DNA from: an uncultured virus (IMG/VR IMGVR_UViG_3300030707_000003)
Lineage: Duplodnaviria; Heunggongvirae; Uroviricota; Caudoviricetes
Virus record (IMG/VR): IMGVR_UViG_3300030707_000003
Direction: 5' to 3' (one strand)
DNA length: 20,000 nt
Shown here: piece by piece, positions 1 through 20,000 of the stretch
Layout of the letters: each line of letters opens with the position of its first letter
Position numbering within the stretch: position 1 is the first letter of the stretch
The notes under the pieces: generated by a model
What the model was told of the DNA's origin: nothing
What the model saw: the letters and a program-made list of their open reading frames with translations, nothing else
Database searches by the model: none
Program-made: the position numbers and the translations under genes

Positions 1-26
1 GTGGTCATTCCCCGGTCGTCTCCCGG

Positions 27-326
27 TCACGCGGTCCCGTCGAGGACCGCCCTGTACCTGTCGTAGTCCTCGCGCCCCATGCGCGCGAACAGATCATCGG
101 CGTCCGGCGGCGGCGGGATAAGAGGCGCGAGCACCTGGGACAGCACGCCCTCCAGTGCGGTGATGCGGGCCGTGATGGCATCCCCGTAGGCAGTGACCGC
201 AGCCCGCATCGCGGAGACTGTCACCACGTCGGTGCCGGAAAGCAGGGCCTCGATCCGGCCGGCGGCCCTGGCGACCGGGTCCGGCTCGGTCCCGCTGCCG
301 TCGCAGTGCGTGCAGGGCCTGGGCAT
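27..326 (-). CDS. Hypothetical protein with N-terminal CxxCxGxG motif
   Basis: GGAGG RBS 6 nt before ATG; CTHCDGSG motif; its stop overlaps a further GGGGA-ATG start running off the left edge. Confidence 0.65.
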   Translation of the reverse strand: MPRPCTHCDGSGTEPDPVARAAGRIEALLSGTDVVTVSAMRAAVTAYGDAITARITALEGVLSQVLAPLIPPPPDADDLFARMGREDYDRYRAVLDGTA

Positions 327-404
327 AAGCGGCCTCCTGGGCGTTGCCCGGTAACTTTACCGGCCCCGGTCTTGGGCGTGACCGTACGCGCCTCCATCAT
401 CACC

Positions 405-656
405 TCATCCCGCTTCCTGCGGCGCCGTGCCGGGGCCGAAGCCGCCGGGCCGGAAGCAGTTCAGGTGACCCTCATCCGGCACCATCTCCTGCGGCCAGGA
501 CATTGAGGCCCAGGCCCTGGCGTAGGCGGCCCGCACCGGGGGCGACTGCGCGGCCCGCTGCGCGCCCTCGGTCCAGAGACCCTCGCCATGCATCGCCAGA
601 TGGTACTCGTCGTAGTCCCGGTCACCCGGGTGGCTCATCACGGGCCGGCTATCCAT
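405..656 (-). CDS. Hypothetical protein (83 aa)
   Basis: GAGGAG RBS directly after the terL stop; normal composition. Confidence 0.6.
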   Translation of the reverse strand: MDSRPVMSHPGDRDYDEYHLAMHGEGLWTEGAQRAAQSPPVRAAYARAWASMSWPQEMVPDEGHLNCFRPGGFGPGTAPQEAG

Positions 657-665
657 CCGCGCTCC

Positions 666-2324
666 TCACCTGATCCTGACCGCCAGCGCCCGGGCGAACG
701 CGGGCGGCAGGCCGCCGCCTGATCCGCCGCCGCTGCGGGCGCAGCGCGGGCAGTCCTCGCCGTGCCCGCCGGCGTACACATGGCCCGCCGCGCACTTCCG
801 GGCATCGGCGGGCAGGTACGCGCTGGCCCAGGACCCGGGCTGCGGCGCGGCGGCCACCGATGCCGTGCGCAGCGGCCCGCGGACGGCCTCGGGGGCCTCG
901 GGGGCCTCGGGGTTCGGGGCGGCGCACCAGATGCAGGCCTGGCGGGCCGCGAGGTACACCTTCCCGCACGCCTGGCAGGACCGGGTCTTCCCGCAGTAGT
1001 CCTTCCACGACGACGACGGGCGGGACAGCAGCCACTCCGCCGCGTACATGATCGCGGTCACCCGGTCGAAGTGGCCCAGGCTGGAGCCGTCCTGGCGCAG
1101 CGTCACCACGCCCGGCGTGGACCCCTCCGCGAGCCGCAGCGACAGGAACTCCCGGCGCAGCATGTCATCGTCGGGGATCTCGATCGCCCGGTCCCGGATC
1201 AGCCGCATCAGGATCTGGGCGCGCCTGCTGGACGCGCCGGCCCCCAGTCTCACCTCCCGGATGTTCCAGCCCCCGGCCGCCATCTCCTGGATCCGGTCAG
1301 CGGCCTGCCACGGGTCCCCGACGATCGGCGCGCCGCCGTACTCCCGTGACAGGGCTCCCGCCGTGCCGAGTACCGCGCCCAGATCCACCTGGCCGCCCCT
1401 CGGCGGCACCCACCCGTACAGCCGGTCGACGATGACGGCCCTGCGCCGGTCGCGGTCCCCGGCGTGCGCGACCGCGACCGCGGAATGGTCCTTCTTCAGG
1501 CCCAGGTCAAACGTGACGACGTACTCGGCGCCGTGCTCCGGCGCCAGCATCCCGTCCCGGGTGCACGCGGCGAGCGCGGCGTCGTCGGCGAGGGCGTCAT
1601 CGGCGGCGGCCCACCGGCACTCGAACAGGCGCAGCCACTGGAACTCCGGCAGCCGCCGCCGCTCGCTGGCGAGTTCGGCCGGGTCCTGCCACGGGGCCGG
1701 GCCGGTGACGATCGACGTCCGCCACAGCGGGTCCTCCAGCGCGTTCTGCCAGAGCCGGTACGACCAGTGCGTGACCGCGCTCGGCGTCGACCCGATCAGC
1801 AGCACCGAGCCGGGGCGCTTGACCATCGAGGTGATCAGCGCGTCGATGAACGTCCAGTCCCGCTCGCTGATCCCGTGGTTGCACACCTCGTCGATGAACA
1901 GCCAGAACGGGGTCTTGCCCCACGCGCCCTCCAGCTCGGAGGAGATGACCTCCAGGACCGCGCCGGTGCGCCGGGCGATCACCCGGCGCTGCTGCACCTC
2001 GACGAGGCCGCGCAGGCTGGGGGTCGCGTCGGTGATCGCCTGGATCTTGCGGACCAGCAGCGCCGCCTGGTCCTTGCCCGCCGCCGCCACGTACATCTCG
2101 TCACCAGGGCGCGCCCTGGTGATCATGACCGCGAGGGTCGCGGCGGCGGCGTCCCAGGTCTTGCTGCGCCCGCGCGCGCGCAGCCAGAAGTGCTTGCGCG
2201 GCCCGTCCCCGGGCTCGAGCAGTGCCTCCATGTCGGCCCACTGGTCCCCGGTGGCGCACTCGCCCCAGGTGCGCCCGTTGTCGAGCACCATCCCGGCGAC
2301 CATTTCCAGGGCGCCGTCACCCAT
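666..2324 (-). CDS. terL: Phage terminase large subunit with C-terminal Cys-rich extension
   Basis: Walker A-like RARGRSKT, Walker B WLFIDE, motif III GSTP, 'RLFECRW' linker, RNase H-like nuclease FDLGLKKDHSAVAV ... GDPWQ ... HFDRVTA. Confidence 0.9.
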   Translation of the reverse strand: MGDGALEMVAGMVLDNGRTWGECATGDQWADMEALLEPGDGPRKHFWLRARGRSKTWDAAAATLAVMITRARPGDEMYVAAAGKDQAALLVRKIQAITDATPSLRGLVEVQQRRVIARRTGAVLEVISSELEGAWGKTPFWLFIDEVCNHGISERDWTFIDALITSMVKRPGSVLLIGSTPSAVTHWSYRLWQNALEDPLWRTSIVTGPAPWQDPAELASERRRLPEFQWLRLFECRWAAADDALADDAALAACTRDGMLAPEHGAEYVVTFDLGLKKDHSAVAVAHAGDRDRRRAVIVDRLYGWVPPRGGQVDLGAVLGTAGALSREYGGAPIVGDPWQAADRIQEMAAGGWNIREVRLGAGASSRRAQILMRLIRDRAIEIPDDDMLRREFLSLRLAEGSTPGVVTLRQDGSSLGHFDRVTAIMYAAEWLLSRPSSSWKDYCGKTRSCQACGKVYLAARQACIWCAAPNPEAPEAPEAVRGPLRTASVAAAPQPGSWASAYLPADARKCAAGHVYAGGHGEDCPRCARSGGGSGGGLPPAFARALAVRIR

Positions 2325-2877
2325 CTGCGGGGACCGCCTTCAGTGCCCGGCGCCGGGCGACGATCTCCGCGCCGGCTGCGATGTGCGCGCCGAGCGCCGC
2401 GTCCTCGGCCTTGCGGGTCAGCCCCAGGTCGTCCATCAGCTTCGCGTACGACGCCGGGTCCAGGCCGAGTGCCTTGCGCGCCTGGTCGGCGCCGCGCTCG
2501 GCGATCCGCCACGTCTCGATCAGCGCCTTGGTGCCGGGCATGGGCGGGAGCATCATCGCGGCGATGCTGCCCTGGACGGACATCAGCTCATCCATCCAGG
2601 CGTAGATCACATCGGTGATCACCTCGGCCCGGGCCCACGCCTGCAGCGCCCTGGCGTACATGGGGTGGCGGAGGTAGTCGGGGTAGTCGCCGCTTCGCAG
2701 CACGTCCCGGATGAACCGGGCCGTGCGCTCCTCGATCAGCCACCCGGCCGGGTAGTACGCGTCCCGCTTGCCGGACTTCTTCTTCCCGACCGGGACGCCC
2801 TGCAGCGGGGTCGCTCCGTCTTTCGCGTCACGCGGGATGTTCGGGCGTCTTCCGGCCACACGGCTCCCCTCTGGCAT
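2317..2877 (-). CDS. Probable terminase small subunit (start may be GTG at 2859)
   Basis: Directly upstream of terL and overlapping it by 8 nt; about 180 aa helical protein with ALGLDPASYAKL, resembling the LGLxP motif of P27-type TerS. Confidence 0.65.
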   Translation of the reverse strand: MPEGSRVAGRRPNIPRDAKDGATPLQGVPVGKKKSGKRDAYYPAGWLIEERTARFIRDVLRSGDYPDYLRHPMYARALQAWARAEVITDVIYAWMDELMSVQGSIAAMMLPPMPGTKALIETWRIAERGADQARKALGLDPASYAKLMDDLGLTRKAEDAALGAHIAAGAEIVARRRALKAVPADG

Positions 2878-2892
2878 GGGATGATGGGAACC

Positions 2893-3105
2893 ATGGGATC
2901 AACGAGCATCACCGTGGATCAGGACACGGCGATGGAGCTGCGGCAGATCAAGAACGACATGTCCCGGGCGGCGGGGCGGGTGGTGCCGCTGCCAGCGGTG
3001 ATCATGACGCTGATCGCCTGCTGGCGGGAGCGGCAGCCGCGAGATCACGTCGCTGCGGTGATGGCCATGACAGACAGGGAGCTGAGCCGTGGCCGGCACG
3101 GGTGA
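2893..3105 (+). CDS. Putative ribbon-helix-helix-like DNA-binding protein
   Basis: Real 3' part of shadow ORF 1048..3105: MGSTSITVDQDTAMELRQIK...LPAVIMTLI fits a beta-strand/helix/helix pattern; alternative ATGs at 2881 and 2884. Confidence 0.55.
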   Translation: MGSTSITVDQDTAMELRQIKNDMSRAAGRVVPLPAVIMTLIACWRERQPRDHVAAVMAMTDRELSRGRHG

Positions 3106-3126
3106 TGACCCGGTGAGCGATCACCG

Positions 3127-3318
3127 GTGCTGGGCGTGCGCGATGAGCGAATGGCTCGGGAGGCCGCCGGCCCGTTTCGGGTCACGGGCGGCGATCTGGG
3201 CCTTGCTCTGCGCCGGTTTCTCGCTGGGCTGCGCGACAACCTGGACCTGTGCGTCCAGTCGATGACGCGTGTCCCCGTCCGGGCCGTGACGCTGACCGGG
3301 GAGGATGAGACGCCGTGA
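3127..3318 (+). CDS. Hypothetical protein; start uncertain
   Basis: Fills the gap and ends in a GTGA overlap with the next gene; a competing frame exists in the 5' half. Confidence 0.35.
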   Translation: MLGVRDERMAREAAGPFRVTGGDLGLALRRFLAGLRDNLDLCVQSMTRVPVRAVTLTGEDETP

Positions 3319-3578
3319 GCGACATCTGCATCGTGATCACCGAGGACCGGCACGCTGACACGGAGGTCACGCCGTTCGCCGGCGAGGCGGAGGCGCTCGC
3401 GTTCGCGGAGCAGCAGGCTCAGGACGGCGCGCCTGATCCTGAGTCGATCACCGCTGAGGACCGCGAGCTGACCGATGGCATGAGAGCGGACGGCTGGCTC
3501 TGGTACTGCCGCTACAGCGGCGAGGGCGACAGCGTGCGGGTGGTCCGCCGCGAGCTGCGCGGGACGGCGGCGCCGTGA
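3315..3578 (+). CDS. Hypothetical acidic phage protein
   Basis: GGAGG RBS, GTGA coupling at both ends, high GC3. Confidence 0.75.
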   Translation: MSDICIVITEDRHADTEVTPFAGEAEALAFAEQQAQDGAPDPESITAEDRELTDGMRADGWLWYCRYSGEGDSVRVVRRELRGTAAP

Positions 3579-3775
3579 AGATCCTGTGGCACTCCATCCC
3601 GCCGAAGTGGGAGTTCACGCCCTACGGGAAATCGATCCCGGAGCCGAACCTGTCCTGCCAGTCGCACGGGCTGATGATGCCGATGCCGGACTGGGGCGGA
3701 CGCTGCTGGTACTGCGCCTTCGATGAGGCGAAGGAGCGGCTGGCGGAGTTCCCGCTGCGGGAGGACGAGACGTGA
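3575..3775 (+). CDS. Hypothetical protein with CxxH...CxxC
   Basis: GTGA coupling at both ends; high GC3. Confidence 0.7.
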   Translation: MKILWHSIPPKWEFTPYGKSIPEPNLSCQSHGLMMPMPDWGGRCWYCAFDEAKERLAEFPLREDET

Positions 3776-4293
3776 GCGACCTGGCAGCTTTCGCAGCCGC
3801 CCGGCTGGATGAGCGCCAGAAGATGGCAGGCGAGCCGCGCACCTGGAAGGTAGCCCACCACGACTGCCGCGAGCCCCAGTGGGACCCCTGCACGGAGGAC
3901 CCGTGCTCTTACGCCGCCGAGTGCGCTGAGGGCAGCTGCGGTCACCGCGTCATCGAGGGCAGCGACGGCATGACGATCTACGACGAGGGCGGTCACACGG
4001 AGGCGGAGGCCGCGCTGATCGCCGCGCACGACCCGGCCTGGGTGCTCCGTGACGTGGCGGCGAAGCGGGCGATCCTGGACCTCTACGCCAGGACGGAGGC
4101 TGCCAGGGACGAGTGCGAGGCGAGGATCCGGGCTGCCGCCAGCGCGCCCGCGGGCACCGTGCTGTCACCCGCCTGGGCGCGCGACCACGTGGACGCGGAA
4201 CGGGAACTGCGCGCGCTTGAGCCTGTGGTTCTCGCTCTCGCCGCCATCGACAGTGATCACGCTGACTACGACCCGGGATGGGCGGTCCCGTGA
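3772..4293 (+). CDS. DUF6221-family-like actinobacterial phage protein
   Basis: MSDLAAFAAARLDE ... IAAHDPAWVLRDVAAKRAIL ... LAAIDSDHADYDPGW matches the pattern I recall for DUF6221. Confidence 0.8.
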   Translation: MSDLAAFAAARLDERQKMAGEPRTWKVAHHDCREPQWDPCTEDPCSYAAECAEGSCGHRVIEGSDGMTIYDEGGHTEAEAALIAAHDPAWVLRDVAAKRAILDLYARTEAARDECEARIRAAASAPAGTVLSPAWARDHVDAERELRALEPVVLALAAIDSDHADYDPGWAVP

Positions 4294-4296
4294 GCG

Positions 4297-4449
4297 GTGG
4301 CTGACCTGATCGTGGCGGTCTCGTTCCTGGTGACCCTGGCCTGCGGGATCGCTGCCGCGGCCGCGCGGGACCCGTGGTGGCTGGCGGGCATGGCCACCGG
4401 GTTCATCGCGCTGCCCGCCTGCCGTAACCACATCACCAGAGGTCCCTGA
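4297..4449 (+). CDS. Small two-TM membrane protein (50 aa; not in ORF track)
   Basis: Hand translation MADLIVAVSFLVTLACGIAAAAARDPWWLAGMATGFIALPACRNHITRGP; starts 3 nt after the previous stop; high GC3. Confidence 0.6.
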   Translation: MADLIVAVSFLVTLACGIAAAAARDPWWLAGMATGFIALPACRNHITRGP

Positions 4450-4466
4450 CGTGCGATAATGGGCAG

Positions 4467-4826
4467 ATGAGCACGAGGGCCGGGCGCCAGGAACTGCCTG
4501 CCGCTGACCGGGAGCGGCGCCGGGCGGCACGCGCCGGCAGCGACCGGCAGGCACGCGAGCGCATCCTGTCCGGGATCGTGCCGGGCGACCTGGCCGGCTA
4601 CGTGGTGATCCGCGAGACCTGGCCGCACATCGCGTCCGCTCACGGAGGCCATCGTGCGCCCCGCAGCTCGCTGGTGACGGATCGCGCTGAGGCGGAGAGC
4701 GCCGCCGCCCGCGCCCAGGCCCATGCCGACATCGACGCGGACGAGGCTGACTGCACGACCGTGTACTGGGTCGCCGAGGTCCGCAGGGCAGCCCCGCGTC
4801 CCGTCAGCGGGGAAGAGGACCGGTGA
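4467..4826 (+). CDS. Hypothetical protein
   Basis: High GC3; GTGA-coupled to the next gene; possible leaderless -10 (GATAAT) upstream. Confidence 0.65.
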   Translation: MSTRAGRQELPAADRERRRAARAGSDRQARERILSGIVPGDLAGYVVIRETWPHIASAHGGHRAPRSSLVTDRAEAESAAARAQAHADIDADEADCTTVYWVAEVRRAAPRPVSGEEDR

Positions 4827-5098
4827 GCGCGGCGAACGACGCTTACAACGACGAGGCCAGGGTCGCCGGCCGGGTTCACGCCGAAGCGTGCGAGGCAGCG
4901 CGGATCGCCTTCTACGACTCGATCGCGCCCCAGCGGGCCGTCTACGAGGCGGCGGCCAGGGCGGCGGGGGAAGCGCACCCGGCGGCTATCGCACAGGCGC
5001 GCGACGGCCGCGCCGCGGCGGCGCGGCCGGCCTTCGAGTGGGACGACACGACTCACAGGCTTGTCCCGGCCCGCTCCGGGGATACGGTGACACCGTGA
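4823..5098 (+). CDS. Hypothetical Ala-rich protein
   Basis: GAGGA RBS; GTGA coupling at both ends. Confidence 0.65.
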   Translation: MSAANDAYNDEARVAGRVHAEACEAARIAFYDSIAPQRAVYEAAARAAGEAHPAAIAQARDGRAAAARPAFEWDDTTHRLVPARSGDTVTP

Positions 5099-5250
5099 GC
5101 AGGCCGGACCGGATCATGTTCAGCACTGCGGCGGCAGGATCGGGCTGCGCAGCCGGATTCGCACAGGGCGCGGGACTCCCGGCAGCCGCGGTCATCTGCT
5201 TCAGTGTCATGGCCGCCGGCTTCCTGCTCCTGATCGCCCTGCCGCGTTAG
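5095..5250 (+). CDS. Small membrane protein (51 aa)
   Basis: 3' end of ORF 4723..5250 from the coupled GTG; hydrophobic AAAVICFSVMAAGFLLLIALP. Confidence 0.55.
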   Translation: MSRPDRIMFSTAAAGSGCAAGFAQGAGLPAAAVICFSVMAAGFLLLIALPR

Positions 5251-5526
5251 GCCCCGCAGATTTCCCGGTGCCCTGTCATGCCGCGCACGCAGGCCCGTCC
5301 AGCCACGACCCGCAGGCTCCGCACCAGAACCGCCCCGAGCACGGACGCGGCAGCGCCCTCACCGCGGACGGCTTCGCCCCGGGCGGCGACGGGACCGGGA
5401 CCATCGGGTGAGCGTGCGGGTGCGGCGCGTGAGCACCCGCATTCGCGCAGCAGGACGGGCCGCAGTACCTCGCGCCGGGCATGGCCACCGGATCGCCGCA
5501 GGCGGCGCACAGGCGGGCGCTTCCGC

Positions 5527-5802
5527 TCACAGCCACTCCCCGCACGCCGTGCACCGGCCGTCGCTGATCGCCTCAGCCGGGTGCGGGCACCTCGGCGCGG
5601 CGCTTCCCGCAGCCTCAAGATCGTCGCGGAGTCCGGCGCTCTCCCTGATGGCCGCGTCCAGCGATGTCCGCAGGCGCCCGTTCTCAGCCGACAGCCGCGA
5701 CACGTCAGCCTCAAGATCCGCGATCCGCTCACGATCAGCGGTGCGCTCCTCCCGCTGGCGCTCCCGCCACGCCGCCTGGTACTGGGCGTTCGTCCTCGGC
5801 AT
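5527..5802 (-). CDS. Small basic/coiled-coil protein with C-terminal CxH...CxxC; possible DNA-binding protein
   Basis: MPRTNAQYQAAWRERQR basic helix, heptad IADLEADVSRLSAENGRL, CPH...CTACG; leaderless promoter upstream. Confidence 0.7.
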   Translation of the reverse strand: MPRTNAQYQAAWRERQREERTADRERIADLEADVSRLSAENGRLRTSLDAAIRESAGLRDDLEAAGSAAPRCPHPAEAISDGRCTACGEWL

Positions 5803-5902
5803 AAGCCCAGCGTAACACTGCCTAACGTAAGGAGCGGCCGGACCGGGGCGAAACTAACGTAAGGACAGGCCCGGAACGGCGCCGCGGGCCCTGATCCTTA
5901 CG
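5803..5902 (-). promoter_or_regulatory. Extended -10 (TGtTACGCT) leaderless promoter with repeated CTAACGTAAGGA boxes
   Basis: Minus strand reads TGT-TACGCT-gggctt-ATG; 12-bp direct repeats at 5822-5833 and 5854-5865; inverted 8-bp copy at 5895-5902. Confidence 0.6.
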
Positions 5903-6203
5903 AAACATCGTTCTCCGGCCCCGGCAGGACCACCGGCCGCGACGGCAGGTCCCCCGGCGGCCCCGTGATCACCCCCTCCCGCGCCAGCGCCCACACATCC
6001 GCCGCGAACCGGTCAGCCACGGCCCTCAGCGGGTCAGGAGGCGCGCCCTCCACCGACGCCCAGTACGCGTCCACCCCCCACTCCACCACCGCCGCCAGCT
6101 GCTGCCCCGACGCCTTCCAGCGGGCATACACCCGCCACGGCAGCTTCACCGACGTGTGCACTGACCTGGGCACGCCCGTCTCCCGGCAGAACAGAAGGGA
6201 CAA
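5898..6203 (-). CDS. Hypothetical protein, possibly RHH-like
   Basis: GGAGGTGA RBS before TTG; SVHTSVKLP-helix-helix pattern. Confidence 0.6.
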   Translation of the reverse strand: MSLLFCRETGVPRSVHTSVKLPWRVYARWKASGQQLAAVVEWGVDAYWASVEGAPPDPLRAVADRFAADVWALAREGVITGPPGDLPSRPVVLPGPENDVS

Positions 6204-6475
6204 AACGGACTCACCTCCCGGAACACGGGAAATATGCAGGGCGGGTAGTCGGGGTCAGGGACGGCCGGTCACCGTCTCAGCGATCACCCGGGCGCGGCGC
6301 GCGTCATCCGCGGGCGTCATCCCATCCCCCGCGTGCGCGCTGCCTGCCATCCCTCACGTATCCCATGGTCTGGACTTGCCCGCGCTGCCCGCTCGCGCGG
6401 TGCCGTGACCTGGGGCGATGCGCGCTGCCTGCCCTGGCATGCTCCGTGGTCTGGAGTACAGATCAGAGCACGGGG

Positions 6476-6505
6476 TTGACGCTGCTTCCACGTTGGGTAT
6501 ACCAT
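6476..6505 (+). promoter_or_regulatory. Sigma-A/HrdB-type promoter
   Basis: TTGACG (6476-6481), 18 nt, TACCAT (6500-6505) at the head of the plus-strand array. Confidence 0.7.
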
Positions 6506-6547
6506 GAGTGCATGATGACGGACAGCAAGCCAGGAGGCGGTCCCGGG

Positions 6548-6755
6548 ATGAGCAGCCAGGATGCAAGTTGCAGTGCAGATTCTAGCGGCATTGCGGAGAC
6601 GTACGGCCAGCTGGTCGCGCGGTATGACCGGCTCATCGGGGCGCTGCAGCGTGACGGCAGGCAGGTGCCGAAGGCTAAGCGGTTCGCTTGCCATGCGGAG
6701 GCTGCTTGACGAGCGGAACGCCGCCATCGGGCGGATGTTCCCGGACCAGATCTAG
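6548..6755 (+). pseudogene. Small gene, probably frameshifted near 6683 (or an intact 53-aa ORF 6548..6709)
   Basis: AGGAGG RBS at 6532-6537; the high-GC3 frame switches at AAGCGG-T-TCGCTT; removing one T gives ...KAKRSLAMRRLLDERNAAIGRMFPDQI*. Confidence 0.35.
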
Positions 6756-6768
6756 CCAGGAGGATTCG

Positions 6769-7116
6769 ATGACCAGGACAGAGGCGATGGACCTGACGGC
6801 GCAGACCTGGGACGGCAGGCCGCCATGGGTGCGGGCATGCTCGCTTCCCGGGTGCGTGATTACCTCGGATCACCAGCACGGGACGCAGCGCGAGGCCGCG
6901 GCTGATGAGCCGGCGCAGTGGGCCCGGCAGTACACCGCGGGATACGAGCACGGCCGCAGTGACGCGAGGTTCTGCCGTGACCCGCGCGAGGGCGCGCTGG
7001 CCGCGATTCCGGCTGAGCTGCCTTTCGAGACCGGCGCTCAGTACGTGGCGCGTCATCTGCCGGTGGCGTGGCGGATCGGCTACACGCGGGCATGGGAGTT
7101 CTATTCCGCGCGGTAG
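6769..7116 (+). CDS. Hypothetical protein (115 aa, starts MTRTEA)
   Basis: CTAGCCAGGAGG motif/RBS directly upstream of ATG 6769. Confidence 0.75.
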   Translation: MTRTEAMDLTAQTWDGRPPWVRACSLPGCVITSDHQHGTQREAAADEPAQWARQYTAGYEHGRSDARFCRDPREGALAAIPAELPFETGAQYVARHLPVAWRIGYTRAWEFYSAR

Positions 7117-7126
7117 CGAGGCAGGA

Positions 7127-7168
7127 GCCTGACCGGCAGGCACCGCGGTCCGAGCCCGCGGCAGGCAC
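7127..7168 (+). other. tRNA-like (acceptor + T-arm) intergenic structure
   Basis: GCCTG/CAGGC outer stem stacked on CCGCGG-TCCGAGC-CCGCGG hairpin with a 7-nt T-loop-like loop. Confidence 0.5.
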
Positions 7169-7200
7169 GGGAAATACTCACCTAGCCAGGAAGGTGCGAG

Positions 7201-7434
7201 ATGACGACTAGAGAAGTGATGAGCGCCAGCTACGGGATGCCGACCATGGTCGGGGCACCGCAGATCCGCAAGGGATACCGCGTGTACCCCGAGACGGACG
7301 CCGGCGCGGCGGATGCGCCAGGCGTGGTCACTGAGATGAGCCGCGACGGCGTCGTCGTCAGGCTGACGCTCGCAGACGGCCGGATGCTGCACTACGGCTA
7401 CGGCGACCGCGTCTTCGCGTCGACTCCCTTCTAG
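7201..7434 (+). CDS. Hypothetical protein, small beta-rich (SH3-like pattern)
   Basis: Motif/RBS upstream; IRKGYRV...GVVTEM...VVVRLTL pattern. Confidence 0.75.
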   Translation: MTTREVMSASYGMPTMVGAPQIRKGYRVYPETDAGAADAPGVVTEMSRDGVVVRLTLADGRMLHYGYGDRVFASTPF

Positions 7435-7442
7435 CACCACTG

Positions 7443-14073: not shown

Positions 14074-15135
14074 TCAGGCCACGGCCGCCATGATCGCCGG
14101 GGACTCATCGCCGCGCAGCCCCGCCGACGCAAGCATGACGGGCGTGACCCGGCGGCCGTAAAAGCGCACCAGGTAGGACAGCCACACCCGGAACTCCTCA
14201 TCAGTGAACATCGCATGGCAGTCGTCACACGCGGCGAAATACAGCTGGTCACCCTCATGCATCGGGGGGGCCGCGCGGCGCAGCGAGCGGTGCCCGCATC
14301 CCTCGCACTGCACGCCGAGCAGCTTGTCGAGGTCCGGGTTCGTCTCGCCCATCACCGCCCGGGCCAGGTAGTCCAGGCGCAGCACCTCGCTGCCGGCGTC
14401 CGCGCCGCCCGCTTCCACGATCACGGTGCCGGGCGCGGGCCGGGGCGTGGCAGCGGCGACCGCGGCATCCCACCCGCCGCTGCCGCGGCTCAGGCCGGCG
14501 GCAGCGGCGACGCGCTCCCCCCAGCCCCGGCCGGGGTCGGCAGCCGGCGTCCCGCAGCCGATCGCGGCGACGAGCACGGGCCGCGTCATCGGCTCCGGCT
14601 GCAGGCCCGTGAGCACGCTCACCCGCTCCCGCAGCACCCTGGCGGACTCGCGGACCACGTCCTGGGCGTGCCTGCCGAGCGCCCTCGCGCGCTGCTCCTG
14701 CGTGTCCGGCGGCGTCAGCGTCGGGTCCACCCGCGCCACCCGCTCGTGCCAGGCGATGGCGCAGTCGGTGATCGCCCGCATCACCTCGTCCACGTCGCAC
14801 CGCACCGGGACGGACGGGCCGAACGGGATGCGGACCAGGATCTCCCCCGTCACGTGATCCAGCAGTGCCGGCCACAGCCGCGCCCACGTCGCGGGAAACG
14901 CCCGCAGCGCCGCCTCGATGATCCGCGCGTCGGAGTCGCAGAACGCCCGCGGCCCCCGCGCCGGGCACCTGATCGTGGTGCCGTCCTCCTGCCGCTGCCG
15001 GACCGCGGACGAGCACCACTCGCCGCGGGCGCACTCCCGGTCCCCTCCCGGGTCAGCCTGCCGCTCCAGCCGCTGCCGCTCCAGCCTCTCGTTGTCCGCC
15101 CGGAAACTGACCCGCCAGTACTGGCCACGGCCCAC
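14074..15135 (-). CDS. Cys-rich actinophage protein, possible late-transcription regulator
   Basis: N-terminal C..C..FC cluster, C-terminal CEGCG...ACDDC zinc ribbon; GGGGAG RBS before GTG 15135 (ORF track start 15177). Confidence 0.7.
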   Translation of the reverse strand: MGRGQYWRVSFRADNERLERQRLERQADPGGDRECARGEWCSSAVRQRQEDGTTIRCPARGPRAFCDSDARIIEAALRAFPATWARLWPALLDHVTGEILVRIPFGPSVPVRCDVDEVMRAITDCAIAWHERVARVDPTLTPPDTQEQRARALGRHAQDVVRESARVLRERVSVLTGLQPEPMTRPVLVAAIGCGTPAADPGRGWGERVAAAAGLSRGSGGWDAAVAAATPRPAPGTVIVEAGGADAGSEVLRLDYLARAVMGETNPDLDKLLGVQCEGCGHRSLRRAAPPMHEGDQLYFAACDDCHAMFTDEEFRVWLSYLVRFYGRRVTPVMLASAGLRGDESPAIMAAVA

Positions 15136-15214
15136 GGCATGCTCTCCCCGGGTGCGCAGGTGGATGCTGATGCGCAAGGTTAACGCGGGACGGCGGGGAA
15201 TGGTGCCAGCAGGG

Positions 15215-16213
15215 TCATCCTCCCTTGTGCCGGGTGCCCATGGGCACCACCGTGCGCTCCCGGCGGGCGATCCTCAGCGCCTCGGCCGCCTTCTCGGTCG
15301 ACACGTGCAAGTCGCGCTTGATCCTCGCCTGGGACACCGGGCCGTAGGTCTCCAGCATCGCCGAGACGTGCGGCGCGAGGCCGGCCGGGCTCATGCTCCG
15401 GGACCGCGCCGCGGTGAGCCTCAGGGCGAACTCGGGACCATGCTCGGGGCTCGCCTGCGGGCGTGCTCCGGGACGGGCCTGAACGCTCGCCTCAGGACGG
15501 CCCCCAGGCCTGGCGGCGGGCTCGCCCGCAGGCGGTCCTGAGGCGAGCGCCGAGACGGCCTCCGAGGCTCGCTCCACGTCGATCCCGTGCACGAGCTGCC
15601 ACACCACGGCCGAGTCCGCGCGGGACTTCCACCGGCTGCCGTGGACCGACCTGAGCCGGGCGATGGCCGCGCGGCGCACCTGCTCCCGGTCCAGCGCGGC
15701 ACGGTACGACGTCACCTGCCAGAGCACCATGCGGCGCCACAGCGGGAACGTCTGGCAGGGGGCCAGCAGCCAGCGGGCCAGGGGGATGCCATCGCGGCGG
15801 TCCTCGGCCCGCTTGCGCGCGACCTTCCGCCACCGGCTCAGCTCCAGCAGCGCCGCCCACAGGGCCGGGGCCACGACATGCAGCGCCCGGCCGAGCCAGT
15901 CGCCCGGCGGCGAGCCGTGGGCGTTGACATACAGGGTCAGCCCGATCAGCGCCCACGCGAGCAGGCGCGGCGCGACATCGGCGCGGCGCTGCTCGATCGC
16001 CCGCCGCGACTCCGCGATCATGGCCAGGATGCCGATGTCGATCAGGACGGGGTACAGGACCGGGTAGCCGGGAAGATGGTGCGTCACCGCCAGCCGGGCG
16101 ATGGTCTGGAAGCTCACCGCGAAGCCGATCAGGGCGACGGCGGCGAGCAGCGGGTTGCCGCTGAGCACCCGGGCGGCGGCAGCCTTCATGTCATCCATCC
16201 TGTCTGCGGTCAC
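15215..16213 (-). CDS. DUF2637 / SpdA-like membrane protein of actinomycete conjugative elements
   Basis: GFAVSF..I..LA ... YPVLIDIGIL ... TLYVNAHG ... LHVVAPALWAALLE four-TM pattern; IPLARWLLAP...WRRMVLW; C-terminal HTH-like SQARIKRDLHVSTEKA. Confidence 0.85.
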   Translation of the reverse strand: MTADRMDDMKAAAARVLSGNPLLAAVALIGFAVSFQTIARLAVTHHLPGYPVLYPVLIDIGILAMIAESRRAIEQRRADVAPRLLAWALIGLTLYVNAHGSPPGDWLGRALHVVAPALWAALLELSRWRKVARKRAEDRRDGIPLARWLLAPCQTFPLWRRMVLWQVTSYRAALDREQVRRAAIARLRSVHGSRWKSRADSAVVWQLVHGIDVERASEAVSALASGPPAGEPAARPGGRPEASVQARPGARPQASPEHGPEFALRLTAARSRSMSPAGLAPHVSAMLETYGPVSQARIKRDLHVSTEKAAEALRIARRERTVVPMGTRHKGG

Positions 16214-16249
16214 GGGGCACCGGGGAGCGCTCCGGGAGATCGGTCACGG

Positions 16250-16549
16250 TCACGCCGCCTCCCGCCGCCTGAGCCGCTGGCGCTGCGCCGGCGACAGGCC
16301 GCCCCAGATCCCGAACGACCCGGCGTCGTACTGATCCTCACTGTGAGCCAGCGCGTACTCAAGGCATTCCGCCCGGACCTCGCAGGCCATGCAGACGCGT
16401 TTCGCGGGGCGCGCGTCGCCGCCCTTGGCGGGAAAGAAGAGCGCGGGATCGACTTCGGCGCACAGCGCCCGGTCAGCCCAGGCCATCTCCGACGCGATAG
16501 CGGTCGCGGGCACGACGTCATCCGGGACCGGGTACAGGCTGGCGGTCAT
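16250..16549 (-). CDS. whiB: WhiB-family Fe-S transcription factor
   Basis: WADRALC...DPALFFP...AKRVCMACEVRAECLEYAL...FGIWGGLS: four Cys plus the G[IV]WGG turn. Confidence 0.96.
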   Translation of the reverse strand: MTASLYPVPDDVVPATAIASEMAWADRALCAEVDPALFFPAKGGDARPAKRVCMACEVRAECLEYALAHSEDQYDAGSFGIWGGLSPAQRQRLRRREAA

Positions 16550-16570
16550 GTCTTATCGCTCCCCTGCCGG

Positions 16571-16791
16571 TGTCCGTTTATCACGCTGCGTAGTCGCAGC
16601 GGTGTCCAGAATGCCGCTCCCCCGTGTGCATCTGCTGTCCAGAATGGCGTGCAGACGGCTCGCGCGCACGCGCCTACGCGCGGATGGGAAGCGGCCCTGT
16701 CCATTCTGGACATCCATGTGCAGTCTCACGGTGAGTCACGCTGACCGGGCGCTGGCGAGGAGAAGATCACGGTCCTGGCGCAGGGTGTCCA
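16571..16791. repeat. TGTCCA(GAATG) direct/inverted repeat cluster; candidate clt locus
   Basis: TGTCCAGAATG at 16603 and 16636, inverted CCATTCTGGACA at 16701-16712, TGTCCA at 16698 and 16786, TGTCCG at 16571. Confidence 0.7.
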
Positions 16792-18754
16792 TGGCGTCCC
16801 AGGTGTTGACCCCAGGCGTGCCCCGGTATCGCCCCTTTGTCGGCTTTGTCACGGCTCCCGTGCTGGTCAGGTCGCGGAGCTGCACATGCACCGAGGAACG
16901 GCTCAGGCCGGTGTGCGCCACGAGCTGCTCGGGAGAGACTCCCTCCGGTCCGGCCGTCATCAGGTCGCGGGCGAAGCGCAGCCAGCGGCGGCGCATCTCG
17001 CTGCTCAGGTCAGACTCGGATGGAAGATCCAGCCCGGCGAGACTGGCAAGATCGGGGATGCTGGCCACGTCGGCCTCGATCCGCGCCAGCCGGTCAGAGA
17101 AGTCCAGCACATCGGCATCCGGCTCGTGCGTCTCATCCATGGCTGCCTCCGGTGCGGGGGAGTGGTAGCCCGCTGTTACTGCGGCGGCGTACTGCGGGGC
17201 CAGCTTGCGGAACGGCTCGGGCAGCCGCAGCCACCGTGCGTCGAACTCGTCCTGCAGGTGGCTCGCGTACAGGCGCAGCGGCGGCCGGGACAGCGCGGCG
17301 TTCGCCGACGCGATCTGCCGGACAAGGTCATGCGGCAGTTCGGGTGCGCGGTGCGGCTCGCACGGCGCGTCCCTGCCGATCCTGGCAAGGAAGCTGCCCG
17401 CCTCCTCGAGCTTGGAGGCGTCGTACCGGCTGTAATCCTCGCCCACGGCGAAAGTCCCGTGGCGGGCCTCGGAGACGGCGAAGCAGATCCGGGCCAGGAG
17501 GTTCGCCCGCGTCTGCTCGGTCCGGACCGACTCGGCGAGCGCGCCGTGCTGGGTGCTGACAACGACATGCACCGCCACGCCGCTGCCCTGCGACGCGATC
17601 GTGGCGACGTGGCGGGCGCACTCGGCGTCGCCGTTGCCCTCGCTGGTGACGCCGTTGGCCTCGTCAATGACGACGAAGATCGCGGGGCATTCCTCGGAGG
17701 GCTCGACCTGCTCGGCACCGTCGTAGGCGTGCATGCCGCGGGCCTCGATCTCGGCGACGGCGGTGCGGAGCAGGATCCGCGCCTCGGGGATGGTGGTGGC
17801 AGGCCAGCCGAGTGCCTCCATCCACGGGCGCGCAGCCCGGCCGCCTTTCATGGCGATCAGCCACGGCGGCGCGGCGTCGGGGCAGCTGGTGATGGCCGCG
17901 AGCATCAGGCTGAGCTGGTTGCTCTTGCCGCTTCGAGTTCTCCCGATGATCAGCCAGTTGACCAGCAGCTTTACCCGCTTCCACCGGCCCTGCTCGTCCA
18001 TGCCGATCGCGGCCGGCTCGGTGATCGACTGCGGCACCAGGTCCGGGGTCCACCGGATCGGCTGCGCTGCGAGCGGGTTACGGCGCCGCAGGTGGACGAG
18101 CACCAGGGACGGGTTGCCGTGGACCTTCGCGACCCGGACGCCGCCGTGCGGGACGTAGCCGGCGAGCGCCGACTCGATCAGCGGGACGATCCGCTCGATG
18201 GTCGCGACGGTCTGGCGGCCGGCCCACAGCTTCACGGTCAGGATCTCGGCCGGCCCGGAGCTGGCGACAGCGGTCACTCCAGAGCCCCAGACGTCCCATG
18301 CCTGGGCGTGGTGCTGCCACCACGCATCCCACTCGGCGATGACGGCGACCGTGCGGGAGCGGTCGCGCGGGCGCTTGTGGATATACCAGGGGATGCCCCA
18401 GGCGGTGCCGAGCGCGCCGAGGACGGCGAGCATGACCGAGGTCACGCCGAGCCACGCGGCGGCGCACAGCCAGCCGCCGGCCGCGACCGCTGACAGCCGG
18501 GCGTACCACTGCTCGGCCGGCCGGTCCCACCTGTGCGGGGCGTGGGCGTGCATGCCGATCACCGCGACGGCCGCCGCGACGGCAAGCTCGCCGCGCCAGT
18601 GCGGGAACAGGCGGACCGCGAGCCCGGCGCCCAGGAAGACGGCCGGGACGGCGAGCGGGACCGTGACATGCCGGTTGCGCCACAGGAAACCCGACCCCGG
18701 TCTCAGATCATGAGACTGGAGCGGCGGCGGGTGCGGCGGGACAGCGGGCGGCAT
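16736..18754 (-). CDS. traB: FtsK/SpoIIIE-family conjugative DNA translocase (TraB-like), 672 aa
   Basis: N-terminal TM segments, Walker A IIGRTRSGKS, MKGG, Walker B FVVIDE, STQ, C-terminal winged-helix-like SPEQLVAHTGLSRSSVHVQLRDL...GRYR; ATG 2 nt after the upstream stop. Confidence 0.88.
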   Translation of the reverse strand: MPPAVPPHPPPLQSHDLRPGSGFLWRNRHVTVPLAVPAVFLGAGLAVRLFPHWRGELAVAAAVAVIGMHAHAPHRWDRPAEQWYARLSAVAAGGWLCAAAWLGVTSVMLAVLGALGTAWGIPWYIHKRPRDRSRTVAVIAEWDAWWQHHAQAWDVWGSGVTAVASSGPAEILTVKLWAGRQTVATIERIVPLIESALAGYVPHGGVRVAKVHGNPSLVLVHLRRRNPLAAQPIRWTPDLVPQSITEPAAIGMDEQGRWKRVKLLVNWLIIGRTRSGKSNQLSLMLAAITSCPDAAPPWLIAMKGGRAARPWMEALGWPATTIPEARILLRTAVAEIEARGMHAYDGAEQVEPSEECPAIFVVIDEANGVTSEGNGDAECARHVATIASQGSGVAVHVVVSTQHGALAESVRTEQTRANLLARICFAVSEARHGTFAVGEDYSRYDASKLEEAGSFLARIGRDAPCEPHRAPELPHDLVRQIASANAALSRPPLRLYASHLQDEFDARWLRLPEPFRKLAPQYAAAVTAGYHSPAPEAAMDETHEPDADVLDFSDRLARIEADVASIPDLASLAGLDLPSESDLSSEMRRRWLRFARDLMTAGPEGVSPEQLVAHTGLSRSSVHVQLRDLTSTGAVTKPTKGRYRGTPGVNTWDAMDTLRQDRDLLLASARSA

Positions 18755-18756
18755 CG

Positions 18757-19599
18757 TCAGTGCTCGGCAAGCTCGCGGTGATGCGGCGAGTTCCCGCCGA
18801 CCTCGCCGAGGGTGGTGTTGATCAGCACCGAGACGGCGTCCGCGCCGTCGGTCATGCATGACGACGCGGCATGCAGGTGGGCCGCCGCCCGCTGGACGCG
18901 CTCCCACACATGCGGCGGGTAGTGGGCGTCCGGCTCGGACAGCGCGACGGCGAAGGAGTCAAGCTGGCCTCCCTGGAAGTCGAACGCCTCGGCCGTCGTG
19001 GCCATGGTCCGCTGCTTGGCCCGGATCCCGCCCGCCCGGGCGTGGCCGAGCAGCACGCCGAGCGCGGCGAACAGGTCAGCGCCGGCACCGGTTCCGGGAC
19101 TCGTCATCGCAGGTGTCCTTTCCTGGGCCGGGGATGGCCCGGCTGCTGATCGCGGGCGGTAAGGAGGCTGCGGGGGAGGGGCGGGCATGGACCTTGGCCG
19201 GCCGGCCGCTGCTATCGGGACGACGTCGGCCACCGTTCCCGGCTCTGGCGGGTCAGGGTCCGTCGTGCGGGGGAAGTTCGTCATCCGCGCCAGCACGGGC
19301 CTGCGCGGCGGCCGGTTCTGGCCCTCCGAGCGCTTGTGCTCCCGGCTGGCCAGCCAGTTCGCCGAGGCGGCCGACGCCACGATCCGGGGCACCGTCGCGC
19401 CGGTCACATGCCGCGCGGACCGGACCCCGCGGCCGAGGGCCTTCCCGCCAGCACGCCGGGCCTGACGGGTGCGCGCGGCCACGGGCGGCGGGACGTGCCG
19501 CTCCATCCGCCGGCCGGCACTCACGAGGTAGGGGCCGGACAGCAGGACGACGAGGCCGGACAGCAGCAGCGGGCCGATGACGGACACCGGGCGGGTCAC
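18757..19599 (-). CDS. Transfer-region protein: TM + Pro-rich linker + helical C-terminal domain, with internal start at 19107
   Basis: GTGA-coupled start at 19599; TM VIGPLLLSGLVVLL; AGGAAAGGA RBS before in-frame ATG 19107. Confidence 0.7.
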   Translation of the reverse strand: MTRPVSVIGPLLLSGLVVLLSGPYLVSAGRRMERHVPPPVAARTRQARRAGGKALGRGVRSARHVTGATVPRIVASAASANWLASREHKRSEGQNRPPRRPVLARMTNFPRTTDPDPPEPGTVADVVPIAAAGRPRSMPAPPPQPPYRPRSAAGPSPAQERTPAMTSPGTGAGADLFAALGVLLGHARAGGIRAKQRTMATTAEAFDFQGGQLDSFAVALSEPDAHYPPHVWERVQRAAAHLHAASSCMTDGADAVSVLINTTLGEVGGNSPHHRELAEH

Positions 19600-20000
19600 C
19601 CGCCGATCCACGATGCGATCGCCGCGGCGTACTGCCCGGCCGGTACCGCGACGTAGGCGTAGATCTGGTGCAGGACCCCGCCCGCCGTCAGGCCGAGCAC
19701 CAGGGGGAGCACCGCAGCGGTGATCATCCCGCTGCCGGGCGACCAGATCAGGTCCGTGACCACGCCGGTCAGCAGGCACAGCGCGGTCACGGTCAGGACC
19801 GCGAACGCGACGCCGGAATGCAGGCCGCCGAGGAAGCCGGCGATCGTGGCAACGGCGGTGACGATCCACCCGCCGAGGGAGGTGACCGCGACCGCGCTGC
19901 CGCCGGCGAACATCAGGACCGTGGCGATGCGGGCCAGCCACGGGCTCGCGGCCGGGACGTGGTGCAGGTGCCGGGACAGGAGCCACGCCGCCGCGAGGGT
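19596..20000 (-). CDS. Multi-pass membrane protein (Spd-like position), 5' truncated by window edge
   Basis: The frame of ORF 19596..19913 stays open to base 20000; several hydrophobic segments. Confidence 0.75.
   Translation of the reverse strand, partial: TLAAAWLLSRHLHHVPAASPWLARIATVLMFAGGSAVAVTSLGGWIVTAVATIAGFLGGLHSGVAFAVLTVTALCLLTGVVTDLIWSPGSGMITAAVLPLVLGLTAGGVLHQIYAYVAVPAGQYAAAIASWIGG

Follow-up and report, generated by a model that had tools for sequence, protein, structure and literature searches.

Phages of mycelial bacteria face a host that is divided by cross-walls, and among the elements of such hosts the Streptomyces plasmid-phage pZL12/phiZL12 is said to have been shown to transfer. 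The integrative and conjugative elements of actinomycetes (AICEs) carry an integrase with att sites, Rep and TraB within 9-24 kb. TraB itself is described, in a passage of Thoma et al. (2015, PMC4447253), as a hexameric FtsK-like pump that is anchored in the membrane, recognises the direct 8-bp repeats of clt through its C-terminus and works with SpdB2-type membrane proteins; another passage there remarks that SpdB2 homologues on the actinophages phiC31 and VWB might aid the spread of phage DNA. The DNA analysed here is a stretch of 20,000 nucleotides, called the window throughout, from an uncultured virus of the Caudoviricetes (IMG/VR record IMGVR_UViG_3300030707_000003), in which genes for a phage terminase and for a divergent TraB-like pump lie on one element. 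The reading we favour, and hold to be rather probable, is that the window belongs to an abundant phage-like element, at least 50 kb long, of a peat actinomycete, either a temperate tailed phage or a phage-plasmid, whose TraB-like pump would read its own clt-like site and pump double-stranded DNA (dsDNA).

Genes in this 72% G+C sequence were called by GC content at third codon positions (GC3), and the proteins of 30 open reading frames (ORFs) were scanned against Pfam, PHROGs and NCBIfam, the last of which gave nothing useful. The pump gene begins at the ATG at 18754 and not at 18907. Its product matches two FtsK/SpoIIIE-like families of PHROGs, with expectation values (E) of 3.7e-18 and 1.7e-15, and carries a Walker A motif (GRTRSGKS) at residue 271 and a Walker B motif (FVVIDE) at 360. 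Hydropathy and modelling predict an N-terminus with hydrophobic segments at 32-50 and 96-114 and five long helices within residues 21-150. At the C-terminus lies a winged helix (about residues 598-645) that passes the Pfam gathering threshold (GA) for HTH_IclR over residues 598-637 (23.1 bits against 22). In the AlphaFold (AF2) model, with a mean predicted local distance difference test (pLDDT) score of 87.2, residues 608-645 form a helix-helix-strand-strand unit at pLDDT above 90. Foldseek places the model closest to the FtsK motor 2iut_A (E 3.2e-16, template modelling score 0.65 on the target) and to TcpA 6o1x (E 4.1e-16), and a profile of 33 family members (alignment A2) recovers the same two proteins among solved structures (TcpA 6o1w, E 1.9e-8; FtsK 2iuu, E 1.6e-5).

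The family to which this pump belongs has more than 175 members, none of them named and all from metagenomes or metagenome-assembled genomes (MAGs), and a search of 401 sampled Actinomycetota genomes recovered it in 2, a floor since a stricter filter was applied. An exact 40-mer of the pump gene was not found in IMG/VR. Over the motor, the protein shares 24-30% identity with FtsK/SpoIIIE proteins from 13 actinomycete plasmids, of which 12 belong to Streptomyces. A full-length homologue is encoded by G096 (tblastn residues 61-694, 656 positions, 26% identity, E 2.3e-28); it passes the Pfam FtsK_SpoIIIE threshold, has a C-terminal helix-turn-helix and is flanked by genes for a DUF2637 protein, an NlpC/P60 hydrolase and integrases, while a second G096 copy lies between an AAA_25 Rep-like gene and an integrase. 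No phage genes were seen at either G096 locus, and both contexts are AICE-like. By architecture and by its shared partner, DUF2637, the window protein thus reads as a remote homologue of AICE-type TraB.

The pump gene appears to be part of a conserved six-gene module that also encodes a polytopic membrane protein, a 279-aa protein, a WhiB regulator, a SpdB2-like DUF2637 protein and a Cys-rich protein, with WhiB between the pump and DUF2637 genes, as the sequence-only reading had it. The family occurs on ten IMG/VR contigs, where tblastn finds WhiB beside the pump in seven loci, the polytopic membrane protein in six, the 279-aa protein in five, and DUF2637 and the Cys-rich protein in three each; the polytopic and 279-aa genes stand upstream of the pump, and the 279-aa protein is also found in C236, a 22,491-bp contig of an Actinomycetota MAG. 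Pfam scans of 26 of the 43 ORFs downstream of the pump in eight loci placed DUF2637 above threshold in four and below it in one, and gave no match in three. A YdjM-family membrane hydrolase takes the place of WhiB between pump and DUF2637 in three loci (L051:12238-12915, L058:12254-12922 and L059:12970-13833). The Cys-rich protein is kept in C236, L051, L053 and L057, its counterpart in the viral genome G406 matches phrog_1467 and phrog_1568, and its nearest Atlas clusters are 55-92% viral. The window DUF2637 protein has two strong transmembrane segments and weaker ones by hydropathy and matches VWB gp24 (32%) and Gilgamesh gp79, and from the VWB match we infer that it corresponds to SpdB2. 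Spread proteins of the SpdB2 type are oligomers in the membrane with some four transmembrane helices each, and their genes adjoin traB. Among cultured phages, VWB carries WhiB and DUF2637, Gilgamesh carries DUF2637, and Thermobifida phage P1312 has a distant FtsK-like gene.

One of these relatives, G406, is a siphovirus genome with terminal repeats that measures 88,938 bp and that CheckV puts at 100% completeness. Among its genes are ones for an endolysin, a tyrosine integrase, two ParB-like proteins and replication. Its pump gene (43807-45858) is followed by a hydrolase, DUF2637 and a homologue of the Cys-rich protein, and then, 5.6 kb downstream of this module, by TerL of another family and the virion genes, namely portal, MuF-like, major head, adaptor, tape measure and tail proteins. 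Since the module is present in ten viral contigs, including this complete siphovirus, it is best read as an old phage module and not as a recent fusion of phage and AICE. The sequence-only reading had proposed such a hybrid, and we reject it because the pump family sits in predicted viral genomes such as G406, is only 24-30% identical to plasmid and AICE pumps and turned up in 2 of the 401 Actinomycetota genomes sampled, and because the window has neither a GntR regulator nor an integrase. Against the definition of an AICE, the element has no tyrosine or large serine integrase, att repeat or transfer RNA (tRNA) in these 20 kb, exceeds 50 kb and carries a terminase.

A module of this kind might also act wholly inside the infected or lysogenic mycelium, in septal segregation of a plasmid-form prophage in the manner of SpoIIIE/FtsK, in superinfection exclusion or in host takeover. 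In PHROGs these families bear the label 'moron, auxiliary metabolic gene and host takeover', and a passage of a preprint (bioRxiv 10.1101/2024.02.16.580700) has FtsK-like, WhiB-like and Lsr2-like genes as common in actinophages, including ones not known to transfer. The two ParB-like genes of G406 fit the same view, as does the small serine recombinase of the window, which could resolve plasmid multimers. We nevertheless regard a purely intramycelial role as unlikely, given that the nearest non-phage homologues of the same architecture have DUF2637 and a cell-wall hydrolase beside them in contexts of AICE type, and that DUF2637 is overwhelmingly a family of Streptomyces plasmids (316 plasmid records, 299 of them from Streptomyces, against 4 phage records; in one of these plasmid records it ends an operon divergent from a GntR regulator). 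The cis site described below is specific to the element itself, which fits both an intramycelial role and transfer and does not discriminate between them.

The sequence-only reading had spoken of a TraB/Spd/clt-like module without giving clt a position; the TraB architecture and the mainly plasmid-borne DUF2637 family are in line with the first two parts, and a candidate for the third now lies in the 186 nt between the pump stop codon and the WhiB start. Here a conserved core is accompanied by copies of TGTCCAGAAT at 16603 and 16636 on the plus strand and at 16703 on the minus strand, two direct and one inverted within 110 nt. These three matches compare with 0.28 expected in the whole window, in which no other copy is found. 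Twelve elements bear the pump (the window, C236 and the ten viral loci), two of which end inside the pump gene, leaving ten to be scored. In nine of these ten, core and repeats follow one arrangement, no more than about 150 nt from the pump stop: one or two copies of the motif, the core (consensus ACGCGCG[CT]AGGCG...GCGCGCGAG) and then three to five further copies. Each site holds three to six lineage-specific repeats of 7-10 nt in both orientations. The sole exception is L059, whose pump carries an insertion and has an uncertain stop. The core pattern matches once in each of eight elements, always at the site, and has no other match in the loci, which come to 598,142 bases, a total in which overlapping loci are counted more than once; the ninth, L058/G406, escapes the pattern through a variant core.

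The core is shared, and it is the repeats that differ from lineage to lineage. Counting copies at the site out of all copies in the locus, the motifs are ATTCTGGACA in the window (3/3), TGGACTC in L051 (6/8), GGACAGT in L052 (5/6), CCGGAATTCCGG in L053 (4/5), CGCGAACA in L055 (4/7) and again in L057 (5/11), TGGAGGA in L056 (5/7), CTGGACACC in L058 (5/11) and GGACACC in C236 (4/11). These differences run in parallel with the start of the predicted recognition helix of the pump. Helices that begin (S/V)R(S/A) pair with a GGAC-type motif in five of five cases, SES pairs with TGGAGGA and GLD with CCGGAA. GRT pairs with CGCGAACA in both L055 and L057, whose pumps are 39% identical overall and whose closest relatives carry other motifs. 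This covariation is suggestive of a pump that reads its own repeats, and by position and design the site looks like a clt.

The same repeats could instead be operators of the WhiB-DUF2637 operon and have no part in loading the pump. They lie directly upstream of the WhiB start codon, and a passage of PMC4447253 places the targets of pSVH1 TraR, 14-bp repeats together with an inverted repeat, upstream of spdB3. Yet the site stays beside the pump stop even where the next gene varies (WhiB in the window, the YdjM-like hydrolase in L051 and L058, others elsewhere), the type of repeat follows the residues of the pump winged helix, and the module conserves no repressor gene of its own. An operator function for 16550-16735 therefore seems to us a possibility on the less likely side.

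The terminase block and the pump module are co-oriented on the minus strand, 14.4 kb apart, as had been noted at the outset. Between them the family, tRNA and repeat searches found no host-like gene, no tRNA and no long direct or inverted repeat of att type, in line with the sequence-only reading. The further claim that no integrase lies there stands for tyrosine and large serine integrases, which are missing from the whole window, and overlooks the small serine recombinase of resolvase type. Evidence that the two blocks form one element comes from C236, which encodes in order the 279-aa protein, the pump, DUF2637, the Cys-rich protein, the recombinase, DUF3631, DUF6221, the TerS-like protein and TerL, at protein identities to the window of 40-66% (recombinase 66%, TerL 49%, DUF3631 40%); WhiB was not detected in it. 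Logan contigs from four peat-metagenome runs of two studies cover 1-14041, 1-5172, 9621-16236 and 11382-14353, each as a single contig, so that both strand switches are bridged, and read depth in run X2 is flat, at 148-189 across all 30 bins. The gene order in C236, the bridging contigs and the flat depth show that the two blocks belong to one element.

A chimeric assembly, or an AICE lying beside a prophage, is accordingly most improbable. Nothing in its favour was found, apart from window ends that are open, while the recurrence of the order in C236, the bridging contigs at even depth with no break or junction, the lack of att-like repeats, tRNA and host genes inside, and the presence of the pump module near a terminase in G406 all speak against it. 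Contigs at depths of 53-303 in all four runs join position 5033 to 13477 and 15374 to 18207, with 31 and 37 other letters in between and with short sides. These joints may mark variants that exist side by side, with 8.4 kb of early genes or the segment from DUF2637 to the pump replaced. They and the joints of low support were taken as related variants, from which no conclusion was drawn.

The size and copy number of the element follow from the same data. The window lies within a 22,430-bp metagenome contig that adds only 460 bases past TerL, and this extended end shows no overlap with the opposite end of the window, in a comparison that leaves aside about 2 kb of the far end. One Logan contig, 42,714 bp long and with a depth of 148, matches 1-14041 and extends 28.7 kb past TerL, and the longest contig on record for an identical pump protein measures 76,977 bp. 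A chromosome of 7 Mb, the size of the MAGs that hold relatives, would at depth 148 take up about 1.0 billion of run X2's 1.37 billion letters (about 75%) and would exceed the whole of runs X7 and X8. The element would therefore be a replicon of high copy number, either extrachromosomal or packaged, and we take it for a phage or phage-plasmid with a size of at least 50 kb, of which the window makes up about 40%.

The terminase itself is unusual. TerL falls just under the Pfam TerL_ATPase cut-off (23.5 against 23.7 bits), and in an alignment of relatives its ATPase and nuclease residues are conserved, with K55 of Walker A and D145/E146 of Walker B nearly invariant. Residues 450-535 at its C-terminus hold two conserved CxxC...CxxC pairs resembling a zinc ribbon, unusual for a terminase, in which C450, C453, C464 and C467 scarcely vary across 37 sequences. 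The family counts 77 relatives, nearly all metagenomic, with a top identity of 64%; tblastn against 50,697 phage records found no match, and a megablast of the window against phage and plasmid records was likewise empty. A profile search found TerL in 7 of the 401 sampled Actinomycetota genomes, at two genome-contig loci, in one IMG/VR record and at 15 metagenome-contig loci; a single-protein scan of the genome contigs found no relative. The 186-aa ORF that overlaps the TerL start is kept upstream of TerL in 11 of the 15 metagenome loci. It has no direct match in the three family databases, and resembles (BLASTP E 3e-6) a protein of an island in G384 that itself matches phrog_83 (TerS), a chain that makes it probably TerS.

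Relatives of this TerL extend the picture towards the virion. L017, in which the TerL gene has 83% DNA identity to its C236 counterpart, encodes a portal about 4.4 kb downstream of TerL, and the same protein is found on contigs C306 and C411 of the MAG that holds C236. It is a single 1446-aa fusion of portal, MuF and NUDIX domains that resembles a polyvalent protein (L017:12501-16841; G001 contig C306, 5444-9877); in C306 it is interrupted by frameshifts and stops that resemble long-read errors. The sequence-only reading had pointed to the flanks as the place for portal, capsid and tail genes; these relatives supply the portal, and in C306 neither capsid nor tail could be matched. The last bases of C236 match the first of C306 perfectly over 44 nt, which is too little to establish that the two join. 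Some relatives of TerL and of the pump are split by inserts of about 1 kb (L025:3686-6301, L026:516-3131, P0075, P0169 and L059:10001-12870), and a LAGLIDADG domain (PF14528) was found in two of them; the inserts are probably inteins, in both ATPases. The TerL profile found no match in five viral records that carry the pump family, so the two families are not generally linked; nor did the pump protein find a match in five genomes with distant TerL relatives. The TerL relative P0059 and the pump relative P0155 share a longest-contig value of 51,567, a hint of a second linked case. C236 keeps the linkage of TerL with the TraB-like pump and DUF2637 that the sequence-only reading had proposed to look for in relatives.

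More distant members of the TerL family sit in small elements. The G384 chromosome holds an island of about 11 kb (L036:14765-L037:5412), between a two-component system and an ABC transporter, with a tyrosine integrase, HTH_17, a DnaB/AAA_25 helicase, TerS, TerL of the window family, a major head protein of 533 aa (phrog_777) and three unknown genes; it looks like a capsid-forming actinomycete satellite. L015 carries an FtsK-like and a Rep_1-like gene upstream of TerS/TerL on 14 kb; a doubtful tRNA-Ala within it was the one find when seven related loci were scanned for tRNA. The window could accordingly derive from a capsid-hijacking or capsid-forming satellite or island that carries packaging genes (TerS, TerL, perhaps a portal) and a transfer module and would not be a complete phage. 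The host-flanked G384 island, L015 and the lack of capsid and tail matches in C306 are what this proposal has to offer. Contigs of 42.7 and 77 kb that hold element DNA, the roughly 47 kb to which C236 and C306 add up, and the phage-like character both of the large fusion of portal and MuF and of the numerous small early genes lead us to consider it improbable.

For a phage or phage-plasmid with its own pump, a mechanism can be sketched, in which DNA binding, pumping and any transfer are what we infer from the genes and the site. The pump would form a membrane-anchored hexamer of FtsK type, its C-terminal winged helix would read the lineage-specific repeats downstream of its own gene, and the hexamer would thereby be loaded on the element's own clt-like site. 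The motor might then push the dsDNA of the element through the membrane or a septal cross-wall, aided by DUF2637 and the other membrane proteins, so that the element could pass into adjacent compartments or hyphae without virions, while TerS/TerL together with a portal would serve ordinary packaging. The more far-reaching version, in which a widespread lineage of uncultivated temperate actinophages infects neighbouring cells or compartments as naked dsDNA by means of its own pump and a modular self-recognition site, whose changeable repeats a co-evolving winged helix would read, as a second and capsid-free route peculiar to mycelial hosts, is one we regard as possible and hold tentatively.

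Several findings weigh against a phage with its own pump. The terminase is the only virion function that Pfam and PHROGs recognise in the window, where no portal, capsid or tail gene was found, and the 14 kb after the portal of C306 gave no capsid or tail match in the same databases. The occurrence of distant TerL relatives in small elements such as G384 and L015 could mean that the backbone is satellite-like. The four peat runs may include the source samples of the window, and the contigs and depths taken from them are not fully independent of it. The pump scores 14.7 bits with Pfam FtsK_SpoIIIE (PF01580), below the GA of 24. No GntR-type Kor/TraR, the partner in the Kil-Kor pairing of TraB systems, or other repressor family was found among the 30 ORFs, whereas the plasmid comparators do carry a GntR-type regulator. 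The covariation of helix and repeat rests on nine sequences, and the position of the repeats in the WhiB promoter region could make them operators instead.

The remaining features of the window are collected in the table below. The plus-strand stretch 3315-13456 holds about twenty small ORFs together with DUF6221, DUF3631 and the serine recombinase, and a third small ORF beyond the one at 27-326 lies just outside the window, in the 460-base extension read from L012. The motif CTAGCCAGGARG occurs six times exactly and once with one mismatch at 6526-10820, always on the plus strand, against 0.10 expected, and its placement suggests that the ORF at 6688 truly starts near 6769. Between the two small minus-strand genes CTAACGTAAGGA is present twice, at 5822 and 5854 (32 nt apart), and the lower-GC region at 6204-6687 contains a repeated GCGCGCTGCCTGCC...GGTCTGGA unit and a promoter-like pair TTGACG/TATACC. 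The whole of 5527-6687 is a candidate regulatory switch, within which 5822-5871 and 6204-6687 may form an immunity or origin region. The DUF3631 protein is probably a replication protein; a relative in L014 is fused to DUF3854 (Toprim-like), and adjoining this fusion, downstream of the TerL relative, L014:14766-17450 encodes an 894-aa protein with a GHKL ATPase, a Toprim (Topo VI-A-like) and a DUF2399 domain. No ParA or ParB gene (Pfam) and no Rfam family was found in the window, and a promoter and terminator scan of 13400-20000 found none.

Features of the 20,000-nt window, with position, strand and the basis for each call
Feature	Position	Strand	Basis
Two small ORFs 3' of TerL	27-326 (99 aa), 405-656 (83 aa)	-	GC3; no family match (Pfam, PHROGs, NCBIfam)
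Terminase large subunit (TerL)	666-2324	-	phrog_9 E 2.8e-27; Pfam TerL_ATPase 23.5 bits
TerS-like ORF, 186 aa	2317-2877	-	overlaps TerL start; synteny
Small early genes, including DUF6221 (3772-4293)	3315-5098	+	Pfam DUF6221 E 3.9e-14; phrog_6326 E 9.9e-12
Two small genes (5527-5802, 5898-6203) and 484-nt lower-GC intergenic region with repeats	5527-6687	-	repeat family D18
About nine small early ORFs without a family	6688-10484	+	six preceded by the extended Shine-Dalgarno motif CTAGCCAGGARG
DUF3631 protein, 558 aa	10831-12507	+	Pfam DUF3631 E 5.2e-19
Small serine recombinase, resolvase/invertase size, 228 aa	12770-13456	+	Pfam Resolvase E 9.7e-26; phrog_95, phrog_125
97-aa protein	13671-13964	-	module tail (13671-15177; weak matches phrog_597, phrog_1467)
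Cys-rich protein, 367 aa	14074-15177	-	weak phrog_597/phrog_1467 matches for module tail
DUF2637 membrane protein, SpdB2-like	15215-16213	-	Pfam E 2e-20; transmembrane segments
WhiB-family regulator	16250-16549	-	Pfam WhiB E 2.7e-20; 48% to VWB gp13
Candidate clt-like site	16550-16735	.	conserved core CGCGTAGGCGCGTGCGCGCGAG (gene orientation) and three exact TGTCCAGAAT copies
FtsK/TraB-like dsDNA translocase (pump), 672 aa	16736-18754	-	phrog_31069 E 3.7e-18; fold; motifs
279-aa protein	18757-19596	-	GC3; hydropathy
Polytopic membrane protein, cut by window end	19596->20000	-	GC3; hydropathy

If the mechanism holds, a self-loading phage pump would let a genome spread through and between hyphae without lysis or particles, and each phage would pump its own genome alone. 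The line between phage and conjugative plasmid would be blurred, and with it the way in which gene flow and phage abundance in soil are read. Because the repeats that flank the conserved core change along with the DNA-reading helix of the pump, the core and the helix-tracking repeats make the clt idea directly testable.

Among described systems, pZL12/phiZL12 and the pZL12-like plasmids of 86-99 kb resemble the element in holding virion genes and a tra region on a single replicon; one of them, pSLE1, is in a passage of PMC4487206 syntenic with pZL12 and carries phage particle genes. A pZL12-like S. anulatus plasmid of 89.7 kb (NZ_CP108377.1) has a GntR regulator, an FtsK-like match, kilB and a terminase within 15 kb. 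Its FtsK-like protein is only 28% identical to the window pump over 243 residues, and no core-plus-repeats site was seen after its gene; the TerL family of the pZL12 type differs from that of the window, in which GntR, kilB and ParA are missing. The very high depth fits a free replicon, and G406 has two ParB-like genes beside a tyrosine integrase. TcpA of the Clostridium plasmid pCW3 and chromosomal FtsK are the best solved relatives of the pump, at 15-23% identity, and TcpA works with a type IV secretion system, of which there is none here. Cultured actinophages offer distant relatives of the pump in the FtsK-like genes of Thermobifida phage P1312 (27.6% over 250 residues) and of Streptomyces phages Mandalore and Naboo, and FtsK-like and WhiB-like genes are, in a passage of the preprint cited above, found in many actinophages. 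Downstream of the P1312 gene no core-plus-repeats site was seen, only a coding repeat.

There are also parallels with the TraB-clt-Spd systems of the pSVH1, pIJ101 and pSAM2 type, which the window resembles in the architecture of its pump, in a repeat site beside the gene and in the DUF2637 partner, the homologous pair being present at the AICE-like locus of G096. It differs from them in the 24-30% identity, a Pfam score below threshold, the absence of TraR/Kor from the window, repeats that stand in both orientations round a GC-rich core, and a family that occurs in viral contigs and not in plasmids. VWB has WhiB (gp13, 48%) and DUF2637 (gp24, 32%) in its early region, upstream of primase/polymerase and terminase, and we take gp24 to be the SpdB2 homologue meant by Thoma et al.; the 16.5 kb of VWB examined gave no FtsK-like match. 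Literature searches found no description of the pump family or of the cis site, and the DUF2637 papers they returned are, by title, not about phages. The concept itself has precedents, in pZL12 and in the SpdB2 homologues of phiC31 and VWB remarked on in 2015. What appears to be new, judged from sequence comparison, is a divergent and apparently phage-specific TraB-like family with a modular recognition site, joined here to an unusual family of terminases.

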